From positions 64,001-128,000 of IMG/VR virus record IMGVR_UViG_3300028048_000060: DNA of 64,000 nt. The stretch is one strand, 5' to 3'. Every line of letters begins with the position of its first letter. The first letter of the stretch is position 1. Both the position numbers and the translations under genes were made by a program. The stretch comes from a virus (taxonomy: Duplodnaviria > Caudoviricetes). This document shows positions 20,062 to 26,820 of this stretch, piece by piece. The notes under the pieces were generated by a model. The model ran no database searches. It saw nothing but the letters and a program-made list of their open reading frames with translations, and had not been told where the DNA came from.

Positions 20062-21771
20062 TTGAAAGAAATATACAAAAAGAAAACATCAAGAGAACAT
20101 ATCTTAGAAAGACCAAATATGTATATTGGTGCTTCTAATGTAGTGGAAGTAGAAGATTATTGCTTAGTTAATGACAAGATTCAGAGAACTTCAGTTAAGT
20201 GTGTTCCAGGACTTTTAAAGATTATCAACGAGATTATAGACAACTCAGTTGACATTGCTATTAAGACTAACTTTGAAGGATGTAACTCAGTAAGTGTTAA
20301 AATCACAGATGATACTGTTGTTGTAGAAGACAATGGTCCAGGAATTCCAGTTTCTAAAAATCCTGAAGGAGAGTATATCCCATTTGTTTGTTGGGGATAT
20401 GCAATGTCAGGTTCTAACTTTGACAATGACGAGAACAGAACTCACTTAGGGATGAATGGTGTAGGAAGTTACTGTACGAATGTTTGGAGTACAGAATTTA
20501 CTGGTATTTCAGATGACTCTAAGAACAGATACACTGTTAAGTTTAAAAATAATGCTTTAGATTATAAGGAAACTGTTTCAGACTCAGTCTCTAAGGGCGT
20601 TACTGTTAAGTTTAAACCTGACCTTAAGCGCTTTGGAATTGAAAAGATAGACCAAACTCACAAAGACTTAGTCTATCAGAGACTGTTAAATCTCAGTATT
20701 AGCTTCCCTCTAATCCAGTTTAAGTTTAATAACAAAGCTATTAAGACTAAGAACTTTAAGTCTTATGTTAGCAGTTTTGCTGATGAAGGAAGTTTTGAGG
20801 TCTTTCAGAGTGATAATTTTAGCTTTGCTGTTATTCCAAGTCCTTCAGACGAGTTCCAACAGTTTAGTTATCTAAATGGTCTTAATATCAAAGATGGTGG
20901 AACTCACATTGATGTGATAGCCAACAACATTGTTAGTTTACTGAGAGACAGTCTTTCTAAGAAGTACAAGACTATTAAACCTGCTGATATTAAGAACAAG
21001 CTGATGGTAGTTGGTGTGTTTAAGAACTTTGCTAATCCTAAGTTCAACTCTCAGACCAAGGAAAAGCTGACTAACTCTGTTTCAGAAGTAAATCGGTACT
21101 TTGGTGATATCGACTATCAGAGTCTTTCAAAGAAAATTTTAAAGAACTCTAATATAATTAGTCCTATCATAGAAGTCTTTAAGATAAAGGAAGAACTTAA
21201 AAACAGACAGGAATTAAAGACTCTTAATAAAGCAAAGAAAATCAAAGACGAGCATTACTTACCTGCTTTAAAGGAAAGTAAATACATAATGGTCGTTGAG
21301 GGACTTTGCTTAGATGAAAATACTGAAGTTCTTACATCTGATTTTAGAAGCAAACAAATAAGAGACATAGACATTGGTGATACAATCATAGATTCTAACT
21401 TTAATCCAGTAACAGTTCTCAGTAAATCACACAAACTCACTAAGACACTTAGAGTAAATTTTAGAGATGGATATGTTATTTGTGGATTAGAGCATCCATT
21501 CTTTGTATATAATAAAGAAAGAAAAATATTTGAGTATGTTAAGGCTAAAGACTTAAATTCAAATTATTCTCTTGTTAGGTCTAAGATTAGAAATGATGCT
21601 AGATTCTCAGAAGTGCTTGATGTAGAAGAAAAACGTTTGTTTCTTGAAGAAACTTATGTAGATTTTACAGATGATGATTTCTTTTGTGTTATTAGAGACG
21701 GAAGAATTCAAAGAGTTAAAGGAACTGAGATAGTTAAAGGAGACTGTTTGATTTTACAATGTGTGAGTTAA
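20062..21771 (+). CDS. DNA topoisomerase II large subunit (gp39-like) N-extein (415 aa) fused to split-intein N-half
   Basis: HILERPNMYIG, EIIDNSVD, DNGPGIP, GMNGVG, SQTKEKL GHKL motifs; VVEGL followed by CLDENTEV. Confidence 0.93.
   Translation: MKEIYKKKTSREHILERPNMYIGASNVVEVEDYCLVNDKIQRTSVKCVPGLLKIINEIIDNSVDIAIKTNFEGCNSVSVKITDDTVVVEDNGPGIPVSKNPEGEYIPFVCWGYAMSGSNFDNDENRTHLGMNGVGSYCTNVWSTEFTGISDDSKNRYTVKFKNNALDYKETVSDSVSKGVTVKFKPDLKRFGIEKIDQTHKDLVYQRLLNLSISFPLIQFKFNNKAIKTKNFKSYVSSFADEGSFEVFQSDNFSFAVIPSPSDEFQQFSYLNGLNIKDGGTHIDVIANNIVSLLRDSLSKKYKTIKPADIKNKLMVVGVFKNFANPKFNSQTKEKLTNSVSEVNRYFGDIDYQSLSKKILKNSNIISPIIEVFKIKEELKNRQELKTLNKAKKIKDEHYLPALKESKYIMVVEGLCLDENTEVLTSDFRSKQIRDIDIGDTIIDSNFNPVTVLSKSHKLTKTLRVNFRDGYVICGLEHPFFVYNKERKIFEYVKAKDLNSNYSLVRSKIRNDARFSEVLDVEEKRLFLEETYVDFTDDDFFCVIRDGRIQRVKGTEIVKGDCLILQCVS
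21307..21771 (+). mobile_element. Split intein N-half (154 aa)
   Basis: Block A CLDENTEVLT..I.DI.IGD; block B VICGLEHPF; ends at a stop codon. Confidence 0.88.
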
Positions 21772-23051
21772 AGATATTTGTAGGAGTCTTAACAGATGAA
21801 CTTCTAAAGAAATTCACCACTTTTCCAAAGGCCAGTTTGTTCTATCCATTCAAAGAACTTACTGGAATGAAGTGTAAAGACTGGTGTTTAGAAAGATTAC
21901 GAGACTTAGAGACTCCTAAATGTGCTTGGTGTGGGAAGATTGTTAAATTTGATACTGAGTATTGTATTGAAGAGAGAAATTTGTTTGTCATTGTTAAATT
22001 TATAGAGGAGCATATTTGCTTTGATACTAAGAACTGTCCAAGAAAAGGTCTTAATCCAAACTCAGTTGAATTTGTTTCAAAGGCTTATAATATAAGCGAA
22101 GAAGAAGCTAACAGAAGAATCTTAGAACGAAATAAATCTCCATTTTATAGGACAAATTATGCCTCAGATGAAGAATATAGTAATGCGCAAAAACGAAATG
22201 AACAATGGTATATAAACCAGTACGAAGATGGAAAGGAAAGATTTATCAAGAGAAACAAAGCCATTTCTGAAAGAGTTACAAAGGAAGGGATGATAAGAAT
22301 ATACGGAAAGGAAAAGGCAGAAGCGATTTGTAAAAGTAAAGCAACGTGTTGTAAAGAACACTTTATGAAAAAGTTTGGCGATTCTTGGAAAGAAGAATAT
22401 GAGAAACATCTTCGAAAAGTAGAACAAACAGAGGAATCATTTATTGCGCGATACGGTCCCGAACTTGGAAAAATAAAGTGGGAAGGCCATATAAAATTAG
22501 TGAAACAAATTCTGAAGAAAAGACTCGAAAATGAAACCTCTGAACAGAGAAGAAAACGATGTTGCTTTTCAAAGGAGTTCTTTAAAACAAGATATGGAAA
22601 TAATTGGAAAACCTACTATAAAGAATTTCAGAAGAAGATACAAGTAAAGGCAGGAAAAGCATCAAAACTTTCTTTAAAATATTTTAAACCTATTATTGAT
22701 TTTCTCGATAAGAATCATTTAAAATATTATATAGGTGTAGATGGAAATAAGGAGTATTTCCTTTGGGATAGGAAAGCTAAGAAACTTCGATTATATGACC
22801 TTTGTATCTTAGATATAAAGACTATAATTGAATTTCATGGCTCTCTATATCATTATAACAAAGATAACCTTTTAGAAAATCCTTTTGGTTTTTCATTAAA
22901 TGAAAGAAAAGAAAAAGACGAACAAAAGGAAAGATTAGCGAAAGCAAATGGATTTGACTACTACGTTATATTTGACACAGATGATAGGACAGAGATGGCT
23001 GAAAAGTTAATCAAAATAATTCAGGAAAAAATAAATGCAAGAACTAACTAA
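21759..23051 (+). CDS. Free-standing homing endonuclease between the intein halves, PD-(D/E)XK/Vsr-like C-terminus
   Basis: CxxC, repeated (R/K)YG helical units, YDLCILDIKTIIEFHGSLYH. Confidence 0.75.
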   Translation: MCELKIFVGVLTDELLKKFTTFPKASLFYPFKELTGMKCKDWCLERLRDLETPKCAWCGKIVKFDTEYCIEERNLFVIVKFIEEHICFDTKNCPRKGLNPNSVEFVSKAYNISEEEANRRILERNKSPFYRTNYASDEEYSNAQKRNEQWYINQYEDGKERFIKRNKAISERVTKEGMIRIYGKEKAEAICKSKATCCKEHFMKKFGDSWKEEYEKHLRKVEQTEESFIARYGPELGKIKWEGHIKLVKQILKKRLENETSEQRRKRCCFSKEFFKTRYGNNWKTYYKEFQKKIQVKAGKASKLSLKYFKPIIDFLDKNHLKYYIGVDGNKEYFLWDRKAKKLRLYDLCILDIKTIIEFHGSLYHYNKDNLLENPFGFSLNERKEKDEQKERLAKANGFDYYVIFDTDDRTEMAEKLIKIIQEKINARTN

Positions 23052-23466
23052 AGAACAGGAACTTAATTTTGAATTAGTTGATATAGAGTCAGTTGAAGAT
23101 AATGGATATGCTAACACTTTTGATATCTCTGTAACTGGGAAACATGATTTTATCTTAGGAAATGGAATTATCACACATAATTCTGCTCTTGCAGGGTTAA
23201 CACCTTCTCTAGGAAGAGAACAGTGTGCATATTATTGTCTAAGAGGAAAACCACTGAACGTTTGGAATGCGTCTCAGTCAAAGTTCACTTCTAATAAAGA
23301 ATTAAGTACTTTATATAAAATTGTAAAGAGTCTTGAAGAAGAAGAACCTATGGAAGATGGTGATTTCTATAAAATTGAAGTTAATGGAAAAGAAATGATT
23401 GTAAATGAAAATGACGAGATTAAGGTAGATGGGAAGTGGGTGAGTGTTAAGGAGTTTATTGGTTGA
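23035..23466 (+). CDS. Split intein C-half (49 aa, 23035-23181) fused to topoisomerase C-extein (TOPRIM start plus gp39-type tail)
   Basis: TFDISVTGKHDFILGNGIITHN|S; extein SALAGL..LRGKPLNV..NKEL. Confidence 0.92.
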   Translation: MQELTKEQELNFELVDIESVEDNGYANTFDISVTGKHDFILGNGIITHNSALAGLTPSLGREQCAYYCLRGKPLNVWNASQSKFTSNKELSTLYKIVKSLEEEEPMEDGDFYKIEVNGKEMIVNENDEIKVDGKWVSVKEFIG

Positions 23467-24410
23467 TTCATTTTGTTTACAGACTAACATATTTGGGAGA
23501 GACGAGTCCCAAATATTATATAGGGAAGCACTCTGGTGATATTGGTGATTTAGGGACAAAATATTTCACAAGTTCAAAGATTGTTAGGGAAATGTTTAAA
23601 AAAGACCCTAAATCCTTTAAGACTAAAATCATAAAGGTGTTTGACACTTGCACTCAGGCACTCGCATTCGAAAGTAAGATTTTAAGAAGAGTGGATGCTT
23701 GCAGAAATAAACTATTTTTTAATCAGTCTAATTATTCATATTATACTAAAGACAGAACATCTTTAGTTACTGTCTTTGACAATATTCTCCAGTGTAAGAG
23801 GTCTATTCCATGTGATGAATTTTATGCGAATAGAGAACGATATATCTCTGACCATGATGGACTTACAATTTTTAAAGACTCAGATGGAAATATAATCAGG
23901 TGTAGTAAAAGCTTCGCTTCTGAACATAATCTTGTTGGAGTTAATAAAGGTGTTGTCTTTGCTTTGAATGACTCAGGTAAGTATGTTAGACTTACACAGG
24001 ATGAATACCACAGTAATAAAGATAAATTTAAAGTTGGCACAACAGGAAATGTGATTTGTAAAGATAAGGTTACGGGAGAAACAAAAAGAGTCTCAAAGGA
24101 AGAATTTGACTCTAACCCAAACCTTAAAGGTGTTTATGACAAATACCAGTTTAAAATTTGCCCTCTATGTAACAAACAGATTTCAGTCCAAAATTATGAC
24201 AGGCACATAAACAGACATAAAACACTGATTTTATGGGTAACTGATGGAAAAGATACTTGGAAATGTACTGAAGAAAAATATTTATTGAAATATAAAGACA
24301 AATTTAATATAATTCAAAAGAATAAGGATAATACCATTGGATACATAGATGGCAAACCTTATAACATCAGATTCGTTGGAAGAATTAGAAAAAATTTTTA
24401 TTTGGAGTAA
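23463..24410 (+). CDS. GIY-YIG (Seg-like) homing endonuclease
   Basis: FVY..YYIGK..YFTSS..E..FFN N-terminal nuclease domain followed by repeated DNA-binding units. Confidence 0.8.
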   Translation: MIHFVYRLTYLGETSPKYYIGKHSGDIGDLGTKYFTSSKIVREMFKKDPKSFKTKIIKVFDTCTQALAFESKILRRVDACRNKLFFNQSNYSYYTKDRTSLVTVFDNILQCKRSIPCDEFYANRERYISDHDGLTIFKDSDGNIIRCSKSFASEHNLVGVNKGVVFALNDSGKYVRLTQDEYHSNKDKFKVGTTGNVICKDKVTGETKRVSKEEFDSNPNLKGVYDKYQFKICPLCNKQISVQNYDRHINRHKTLILWVTDGKDTWKCTEEKYLLKYKDKFNIIQKNKDNTIGYIDGKPYNIRFVGRIRKNFYLE

Positions 24411-24413
24411 GAT

Positions 24414-24964
24414 ATGAAAGAATTTAAGAAGGTCAAGTTAACCAAAGAACAATTAAAGGAATACAGAGAAAATCCTAATATCAGAAGACGTAAAATTCTC
24501 ACAGGAGGTTTTGAGAAGATTGTCTATGCCTCCGACCAGGACTTAGACTAGCCCTTTGGGGCTAGTATATTTTTTAAGGAAAATTAGACGGATTCCACAT
24601 TCGCGCATTGCTCTCAGGATTTATTAACAAATACTTACCTGAGTACAAGGAAAGAACTGGGATGCTTGAAACCCCTATCATAGGATTTTTAAAGGCGCAA
24701 AAGCTTCAGAGATGGAGTTATGACTTAGATGATGAGTCTAAGACTAAACCTGGAGAAGTTCCATTCTATTACAAGGGATTAGGTTCCTGGGAGAAAGAAG
24801 ACCTCAAGAAGGTTGTAAAGACAGATGGTTTAGAAAAGATGATTAAGATGCTTGATTTTAATTCTGAAGATGCATATAATTCATTAGAAGAGTGGTTGGG
24901 AGATGACTCTGAACCGCGAAAGAAACATATCTTAGAAAACGACTTTAACATCGCTGATGTATAA
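24414..24964 (+). CDS. Topoisomerase II subunit, gp60-like, predicted join(24414..24548,24590..24964) by translational bypass, 169 aa
   Basis: 45 codons ending YASDQDLD-stop; downstream frame resumes GFHIRALL..TPI..YYKGLGS; the join restores the TOPRIM DxDxDG.HI motif. Confidence 0.88.
24546..24589 (+). other. Ribosomal bypass (hop) element with 41-nt coding gap
   Basis: GAC-TAG take-off inside hairpin ACTAGCCC-TTTG-GGGCTAGT; AAGGA 6 nt before the matching landing GAC. Confidence 0.85.
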
Positions 24965-24973
24965 GGAACACTA

Positions 24974-25480
24974 GTGAGAAAATTCACAGAACAAGAAAGG
25001 GAGAAGTTAAAATCCCTTATATCTAACTATATAGAGTTAAGAAATTTGTCTTTTGGAGAAAATCATAGTCAGGCTATTACACAGGGTCACCAAAAAGCAA
25101 AGGCTATCAAAGACCTTTTAAGTAAAAACAACATAGATCCATCCTGGATGGGAATGATAAAGAAAAACTCAAATGAAGATGAAATTATCTCCAAACTGTT
25201 CGAAGATCATCCAGAAGTCAAAAGTGATAAAAATAAAGAAATATGTCTTCTCTATATAAAGATAAAGAAAATGAGTAAAGACGTTGATGCGAGAAAAGAG
25301 AAGACTAAGAGTTCTATCTTAAAGAAAATAGCTAAAATCGACCCTATGCTATCAGCTTATGTTTTGTATAAAGTTAAGATTTTCCAAGCACGTAAAATAC
25401 TGGAAAAGAGTCTAATGAATGAAACATTAGACTCATTAGAACAGAGATACAAAGAGATTTTAAAGGATTTTGATTTATGA
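24974..25480 (+). CDS. Hypothetical protein
   Basis: ORF with AAGGA RBS between the topoisomerase genes. Confidence 0.6.
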   Translation: MRKFTEQEREKLKSLISNYIELRNLSFGENHSQAITQGHQKAKAIKDLLSKNNIDPSWMGMIKKNSNEDEIISKLFEDHPEVKSDKNKEICLLYIKIKKMSKDVDARKEKTKSSILKKIAKIDPMLSAYVLYKVKIFQARKILEKSLMNETLDSLEQRYKEILKDFDL

Positions 25481-26820
25481 CAGATTCGGTTAAGATTGAA
25501 GAATTTTTAAATACAAGATTGTCTAATTATGCTAGCTATGATAATCTTAGAAAGATTGGAAGTTACATTGATGGACTTAAAAATGCTAGTAGAAAAGTTC
25601 TTTATACTATCCATGAGAAGAACATCAAAGACACAGAAAAGGTCTCGAGATTAGCTTCTAAGTGTTCTGAGTTCTCTGATTATCTCCATGGAGATGGGTT
25701 ATGGAGAGTTATAGTTACTCTAGGACAGGACTTTGCAGGGACCAATAACATTCCTTTGATTCAGAAGTTTGGTGCATTTGGATGTCGTTCAAACAACGAA
25801 CCTGGTGCCCCAAGATACATCCATGCTTCAGGTTCTAAGATGTTCTTTAGTCTGTTTAATTATAAAGATGATGATATTTTAGTAAAACAGACATTTGAAG
25901 GAACTACTATAGAACCAAGATTCTATGTTCCTACTATCCCTATTATCTTAGTTAATGGGAGTGAAGGAGTTTCTTCTGGATTTGCTCAGAAAATCTTAGC
26001 GAGAAATCCTAAGAATATCATTAAGTACATTCAGAACTTCCTTAATAAAAAGCCTACTAGAAAAGACTGGTTAAATCCATTTTATAATGGATATAATGGC
26101 GACATTATCAGAGACCCTAACTTCCCTGACGACCCAAAGAAATGGTTAGTAAATGGAAAGGTAGAAAAGGTTAAGTCTAATGTATACAGAATTAAAGAAA
26201 TTCCATTTACTTATGATTTAAACTCCTACCTGAAAGTCTTAGATTCCTTGGAAGAGTCAAAGACAATTTTGAGTTATTCAGATATGTCAGATGGAGACTG
26301 TAAGTTAGAGTTTGAAGTAAAGGTTCCAAAGGATTTTAAACACGAAGATGTTTTAAAGACGTTAAAGTTACAAAAGCCTATTACTGAGAACTATACTTGT
26401 ATAGATGAAAATAACAAAATCAGGATTTTCGAAGACTCAGAAGAAATAATCAAGTCTTTTATAGATATAAAGCTAAAATTTATTCAAAAGAGAAAAGAGT
26501 TTCTGGAAAAAACCCTTCAGGGTGAATTAGACATTTTGAACTCTAAGATTTTGTTTATTACTATGGTTATAGATAAGAAACTAAAGATAAACAATATCCC
26601 TAAAGAACAGGTTATTGAAGCATTAAGCAAAGTAAAGAAAATTGTAAAAGTCCAAGACAGTTATGATTATCTTTTAAAGATGCCTATCTATTCTCTGACA
26701 AAAGAGAAAGTTGAAGACTTAAAGAATCAGGCATTATCAAAGAGTTCAGAACTTGAGGAATTAAAGGAAATGTCTAAAGAGCAAATATGGTTAAAAGATT
26801 TAGAGGAGATAAAGTTGTAA
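25477..26820 (+). CDS. DNA topoisomerase II medium subunit, gp52/GyrA-like
   Basis: IDGLKNASRKVLY, YLHGD, catalytic APRYI, P.ILVNGSEG..SGFA. Confidence 0.93.
   Translation: MTDSVKIEEFLNTRLSNYASYDNLRKIGSYIDGLKNASRKVLYTIHEKNIKDTEKVSRLASKCSEFSDYLHGDGLWRVIVTLGQDFAGTNNIPLIQKFGAFGCRSNNEPGAPRYIHASGSKMFFSLFNYKDDDILVKQTFEGTTIEPRFYVPTIPIILVNGSEGVSSGFAQKILARNPKNIIKYIQNFLNKKPTRKDWLNPFYNGYNGDIIRDPNFPDDPKKWLVNGKVEKVKSNVYRIKEIPFTYDLNSYLKVLDSLEESKTILSYSDMSDGDCKLEFEVKVPKDFKHEDVLKTLKLQKPITENYTCIDENNKIRIFEDSEEIIKSFIDIKLKFIQKRKEFLEKTLQGELDILNSKILFITMVIDKKLKINNIPKEQVIEALSKVKKIVKVQDSYDYLLKMPIYSLTKEKVEDLKNQALSKSSELEELKEMSKEQIWLKDLEEIKL

Follow-up and report, generated by a model that had tools for sequence, protein, structure and literature searches.

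Organisation of the topoisomerase locus

The window analysed here is a stretch of 64,000 nt (positions 64,001 to 128,000) from the 154.7-kb uncultivated viral record IMGVR_UViG_3300028048_000060, and the locus of interest within it is one fragmented gene for a topoisomerase large subunit. The gene begins with a gp39-like N part that carries an intein-N tail (20062-21771), followed by a free-standing ORF of 430 aa that overlaps both of its neighbours (21759-23051) and by a third ORF consisting of a 49-aa intein-C (...ITHN/S), the extein, and an added tail (23035-23466). The split intein interrupts the upstream topoisomerase piece. A Pfam search with the 430-aa ORF gave no match; Manning and Atkins described it as a VSR-type endonuclease (bioRxiv 10.1101/2022.08.31.505936).

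The upstream piece is separated from the next topoisomerase piece, ORF2, by a GIY-YIG homing-endonuclease-like ORF of 315 aa (23463-24410, plus strand), and the cassette discussed below has this ORF as its mobile partner. The assignment of the ORF is based on the preprint listing and on a weak match to SegE_GIY-YIG (Pfam E 0.0029, under the curated cut-off). ORF2 occupies 24414-24964 in two pieces, and only a single copy of the C-terminal part of this subunit was seen in the locus. A GyrA-like subunit lies further downstream (25477-26820). Between ORF2 and the GyrA-like gene, an ORF of 168 aa (24974-25480) was found that matched nothing in Pfam or PHROG. At the corresponding position, the ORF of close strains has 112, 168 or 171 aa, and the counterpart stretch of the relative L020 (1729-2217) gave no DNA-level alignment. 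The window holds no tRNA genes and hence no phage tRNA-Asp.

Anatomy of ORF2 and the 41-nt gap

The first-pass annotation had described ORF2 as a ribosomal bypass element similar to that of T4 gene 60, with a 45-codon ORF, a GAC codon followed by TAG, and a second frame resuming at 24590. All of these coordinates were confirmed. The upstream ORF starts with ATG 24414 and comprises 45 codons (24414-24548, C-terminal ...IVYASDQDLD). Its first 32 codons form a leader (24414-24509, plus strand), and the remainder is the FEKIVYASDQDLD segment (24510-24548, plus strand), which is homologous to the uninterrupted gene according to the L020 alignment and PHROG 7229, corresponds to 'HomR' in the preprint, and ends in the take-off GAC at 24546-48. 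The TAG lies directly 3' of this codon at 24549-51. The second frame (24590-24964, plus strand; 124 codons and TAA, without a start codon of its own) begins with GGA TTC CAC ATT, reads GFHIRALLSGF..., and proceeds via YYKGLGSW to the TAA at 24962-64. The gap between the two pieces spans 24549-24589 (plus strand) and measures 41 nt if counted from the TAG through the landing GAC, in the same way as the annotated 50 nt of T4. It comprises the stop codon, the remainder of a hairpin, an A/U-rich spacer, a Shine-Dalgarno-like box, and the landing codon.

The predicted take-off stem-loop (24547-24566, plus strand) is a perfect 8-bp stem, ACTAGCCC-TTTG-GGGCTAGT, with arms at 24547-54 and 24559-66, a UUUG loop in the transcript, and a local energy of approximately -14.6 kcal/mol. 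The 8-bp hairpin around TTTG had been noted before as enclosing both the take-off codon and the stop; the TAG does lie in it, but of the take-off GAC only AC is part of the stem. The A/U-rich sequence ATATTTTTT follows 3' of the hairpin, and then AAGGA (24576-80, plus strand), which is placed, as previously observed, 6 nt upstream of the landing GAC at 24587-89. [quoted passage not shown] The hairpin pattern occurs once in the 154.7-kb record, so there is no second cassette in another gene. An Rfam search of the element returned no family, with chance-level matches only (E > 4).

Joining both pieces yields a gp60-type topoisomerase II subunit of 169 aa with a whole TOPRIM motif, DQDLDGFHI, and a predicted D45-G46 junction peptide IVYASDQDLDGFHIR. 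This reconstruction of the motif, already proposed from the reading frames, was supported by the profile of the gene-60-type subunit, PHROG 7229. Of the profile, the 45-aa ORF accounts for positions 4-47 and the frame that starts at 24590 for positions 48-170 (E 3.9e-19). As positions 47 and 48 flank the gap, no residue is lost or doubled at the join. The gap itself is located at the Asp45 codon, within the DxDxDG of the TOPRIM domain of the topoisomerase II large subunit.

Uninterrupted relatives and insertion boundaries

A search with the downstream piece revealed both gapped and gap-less relatives. The gap-less protein P0002 of L005 (78% identity) is unbroken at this site, as in the gap-less relatives generally, and reads ...DQDLDGFHIRALLSGF... 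(DNA TTA GAC GGT TTT CAT). A much closer relative, L020 (scaffold Ga0326512_10080268; 98% aa identity and 93-96% nt identity), shows neither the split nor the gap; it reads ...KIVKSENFEKIVYASDQDLDGFHI.... In an alignment with L020, the window was seen to carry three independent insertions. The first is the block of split intein and endonuclease at 21307-23183, which is missing from the 96% identical L020. The second, at about 23331-24509, holds a tail, the GIY-YIG ORF, and the leader, and the third is the 41-nt gap. The tail is a cassette-encoded C-terminal addition to the upstream topoisomerase piece (23331-23466, plus strand; 'CTE' in the preprint), and the identity to L020 stops at 23330. 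Within the 39 nt of the FEKIVYASDQDLD segment, all differences between the window and L020 are synonymous.

Relative to both L005 and L020, the gap is an exact insertion, and these two relatives lack precisely this stretch. The leader is missing from the uninterrupted gene and therefore belongs to the inserted cassette. Together with the leader, the C-terminal tail, and the GIY-YIG endonuclease, the gap makes up one inserted mobile cassette. Among the strains with at least 90% identity to the window (L182-L193), the three insertions assort independently. Some carry the intein block without GIY-YIG, some carry GIY-YIG, and some carry neither (ORF1 of 490 aa). Since split and gap are present in every one of these strains, the gap outlives the loss of the endonuclease.

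As a separate observation, three distant topoisomerase genes (L071, L143 and L146, at approximately 2440-2510) are interrupted by an intein at this TOPRIM site, with ends reading ...SHN/CDGAHI or ...THN/CDGSHI. The conserved TOPRIM motif is a recurrent target of different mobile elements.

Conservation and selection in gapped relatives

Approximately 17 distinct gapped loci from unrelated metagenomes, all interrupted at the same site, and a further 12 near-identical strains were collected. A scan of viral contigs with a single protein was fruitless, and a scan with a protein alignment was successful. When 4 kb of the locus were compared to cultured phages by megablast, no match was obtained. 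In all 17 loci, the take-off codon encodes Asp (GAC, once GAU) and the landing codon is GAC or GAU. A stop codon, UAG or UGA, directly follows the take-off codon in all relatives. The hairpin has 6-9 bp with the stop included and is closed by UUUG, UUAG, GAAA, UUGC or UUCG loops across the 17 loci. All loci but one (16/17) have a purine box (AAGGA, AAGG, AGAGG or GAG) at a distance of 3-7 nt on the 5' side of the landing codon, and the A/U-rich spacer is free of a premature GAY triplet in 15 of the 17. The recurrence of this pattern in many independent assemblies places it far beyond chance.

The stem was further supported by pairing in 94% of cells among 13 distinct sequences, compared to 20-46% when the partner columns were slid. 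Along with the switch between UAG and UGA, both partners of two adjacent pairs are exchanged (A-U to G-C and G-C to A-U); a single event or a few could account for this. With regards to the downstream piece, the gapped loci alone gave a median dN/dS of 0.26, with dS saturated in many pairs, and values of 0.03-0.11 for the less saturated pairs. From this purifying selection in gapped loci, it can be concluded that the downstream piece is still translated in spite of having no start codon.

One way of achieving this would be a second split of the gene, in which a 45-aa peptide ends at the UAG, ribosomes re-initiate with the help of AAGGA, and the two chains assemble non-covalently. The box does lie just 5' of the resumed frame, and the enzyme already tolerates being split. 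However, the window contains no in-frame ATG, GTG or TTG between the TAA at 24575 and the landing codon, and an in-frame start before the landing codon is likewise absent from 16 of the 17 loci. The first candidate in the window, TTG 24608, would remove GFHIRA of the catalytic motif. Re-initiation would moreover divide the metal-binding DxDxDG motif between two chains and leave the conserved landing Asp codon without a role. The exception is the variant L014/L015 (L014:3025-3045) with a gap of 47 nt, where an in-frame ATG is found 15 nt 5' of the landing codon next to a GAG box only; this is the sole locus at which the downstream piece may initiate independently. Overall, we consider re-initiation very unlikely for the window, and the bypass of the gap by the ribosome is the preferred reading.

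Self-splicing introns are frequent in phage genes near homing endonucleases, and removal of the gap from the RNA, as a tiny intron or by processing, would render the mRNA colinear with the protein. With 30-48 nt across the loci, however, the gaps are far below the size of group I or group II introns, and no Rfam family was found at a useful score. The stop, the matched codons and the spacing of the Shine-Dalgarno-like box are conserved signals of translation, and the T4 homologue keeps its gap in the mRNA (bioRxiv 10.1101/2022.08.31.505936). Removal at the RNA level is therefore regarded as extremely improbable compared to a translational bypass.

The gap could also be a non-functional interruption, be it a pseudogene, a scar of endonuclease repair or an assembly artefact, with a hairpin that merely serves as a terminator. 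In the window, the hairpin and the T-run indeed meet the pattern of an intrinsic terminator, and the direct repeat TTAGAC could resemble a target-site duplication. The repeat had been listed as part of the landing site in the first-pass annotation; it is present in the window, but relatives conserve the landing Asp codon only, and not the 6 nt. Similarly, just 3 of the 17 loci have a T-run that attains 5 of 8, and termination was rejected as the conserved function of the hairpin. Among the strains of at least 90% identity, from 12 sequencing runs, the T-run comprises 4, 5, 6 or 7 residues and the gap accordingly 39-42 nt. At least three independent runs share the exact 41-nt gap, and nine others contain the variants of 39, 40 and 42 nt, which argues against an assembly artefact. 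Together with the purifying selection on the downstream piece and the lack of another copy of this C-terminal part in the locus, this leaves hardly any probability for a non-functional gap. Finally, frameshifting and readthrough were rejected as well, since the gap contains stops and the frame relation of the two pieces drifts freely through all three classes (e.g., by a 5-nt indel between L011 and L012).

Proposed bypass mechanism

Taken together, ORF2 very probably contains a programmed translational bypass cassette of the gene 60 type, situated in the gp60-like ORF2 of a topoisomerase II as found in T4-like phages, with ribosomes bypassing the gap. This agrees with the first-pass interpretation of a diverged natural element with an Asp tRNA, a shorter gap, and a take-off one codon earlier, for which both the comparative evidence and the corresponding entry of the preprint (MGS5, see below) speak. 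Starting from the anatomy, conservation, covariation, selection and insertion boundaries observed here, the ribosomal events at the gap can be modelled on those of T4.

Following this model, the 45 codons would be translated until peptidyl-tRNA(Asp) occupies the GAC at 24546-48 and the UAG enters the A site; the upper part of the 8-bp hairpin could form there. Take-off would be favoured by the slow stop codon and by the leader peptide, which presumably acts in the exit tunnel. [quoted passage not shown] After re-pairing of the tRNA with the landing GAC at 24587-89, decoding would restart at GGA 24590 and lead to the 169-aa protein with an intact DQDLDGFHI. A literature search found no experiment on an Asp-type cassette.

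Early-stop variants

Three of the gapped loci (L013:496-531, L115:2465-2500 and L117:2463-2500) deviate from this arrangement, as their stop comes directly after DQD and two codons ahead of Asp45. In these loci, DQDLDG is only regained with a landing on a GAU 6 nt past the GAGG or AAGG box, and productive landing would take place at the first triplet of GAT TTA GAC GGN. An additional GAT is present in L115 and L117, 5 nt upstream and right after the GAGG box, and would be an unproductive landing site. The junction of L115 is that of MGS2, for which a Shine-Dalgarno spacing of 12 nt was given, and the cassette was described at the 'same position +/-1 codon' (both bioRxiv 10.1101/2022.08.31.505936). 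L013, L115 and L117 probably use a third take-off position. If this is true, the 12-nt exception in the preprint disappears.

Single T's account for the differences in gap length among near-identical strains (39-42 nt), and the gap persists where the endonuclease has been lost, so the gap length might tune the output of full-length subunit. We tentatively put forward, as a possibility we would not yet favour, that the cassette is more plastic than described in the preprint, with a third take-off position and a gap length that tunes the amount of full-length subunit instead of only protecting against self-cleavage.

Relation to previous work

Few processes deviate from colinear decoding as far as translational bypassing does, and to our knowledge T4 gene 60 was the sole known case for decades. 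The implied novelty of the locus did not hold, as both the class and this very locus have been known since the 2022 preprint of Manning and Atkins. These authors reported dozens of cassettes homologous to that of gene 60, grouped into clades 1-11 (bioRxiv 10.1101/2022.08.31.505936). Take-off at Asp45 (GAC/GAU) was described for Acinetobacter and Aeromonas phages and most metagenomes, with UAG or UGA as stops and mini-Shine-Dalgarno boxes 5-7 nt from the landing codon (bioRxiv 10.1101/2022.08.31.505936). An extra C:G pair and UUUG loops were reported for clades 9 and 10, and in place of MobA the authors found GIY-YIG endonucleases, again in clades 9 and 10, or VSR endonucleases (bioRxiv 10.1101/2022.08.31.505936). 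Table S2 of that work lists, as MGS5 of clade 9, the bovine rumen scaffold Ga0256405_10000342 / IMGVR_UViG_3300028048_000060 (bioRxiv 10.1101/2022.08.31.505936). [quoted passage not shown] The window locus is MGS5. Of the relatives collected here, L023 is MGS4, and L018/L105 correspond to MGS6. A formally published version of the preprint was not found in a literature search.

The finding thus bears out known biology without extending it. Additions beyond the preprint are L020 as a 'parental' clade-9 gene, the gap-length polymorphism among strains, the selection test, and the probable third take-off position; L020 and six variant hairpins are missing from the preprint supplements. The uninterrupted relative and the strain-level variants provide ready-made natural controls for Asp-type cassettes, and natural variants with an Asp tRNA, shorter gaps, and different loops lend themselves to tests of the bypass mechanism. 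Gene callers still miss ORF2 and report a 45-aa ORF plus a truncated gene of 100-118 aa, or read TGA as Trp. The latter is the case for protein P0008 of L013, where an in-frame gap of 30 nt misled the gene caller into a 176-aa product with a spurious 10-residue insert inside DxDxD.

Comparison with T4 gene 60 and other cassettes

The window and T4 share the interrupted gene, the DxDxDG site of the TOPRIM domain, and the stop directly after the take-off codon. Both hairpins contain the core UAGCC...GGCUA (T4: GAUAGCC-UUCG-GGCUAUC), while the stem of the window has an extra C:G pair and a UUUG loop in place of UUCG. A Shine-Dalgarno-like box is found 6 nt before the landing codon in both cases, as AAGGA in the window and as GAG in T4 (landing GGA). 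[quoted passage not shown] An endonuclease gene is situated between the gene pieces in both phages, GIY-YIG-like in the window and encoding the HNH enzyme MobA in T4 (mobA cassette). MobA is reported to cleave the uninterrupted site and to spare the gapped one. Experimental testing is limited to the T4 cassette.

The resemblance of the leader to the T4 nascent peptide, which had been given correctly as KKYKLQNNVRR, was substantiated by an alignment with T4 gp60 residues 2-45 (25% identity, pairwise E 9e-05), in which T4 KKYKLQNNVRRS is placed opposite KEYRENPNIRRR of the window with Y..N[VI]RR in common. In the window leader, the shared positions are Y17, I23-R24-R25, F33 and S40, and Y-x5-I-R-R is the counterpart of the T4 nascent-peptide signal. 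Most gapped relatives retain the Tyr together with [VI]RR or [IV]KRR, and the leaders of other relatives, e.g., that of L013 (YKNQSNVRRS), are closer to T4 than that of the window.

Cassettes of the Aeromonas and Acinetobacter phages (clades 5 and 6 of the preprint) also take off and land on Asp45 GAC/GAU codons and stem from cultured phages. According to the preprint description, they are set apart by their MobA-type endonucleases and, for Aeromonas, by a gap of merely 20 nt and a much reduced stem-loop. The closest relative from cultured phages with a separate ORF2 is found in Campylobacter Firehammervirus (e.g., CP21_101; 46% identity). With 169 aa, CP21_101 has the length of the joined window product and retains the leader, but it has neither a gap nor an adjacent endonuclease, and its ORF2 is relocated in the genome.
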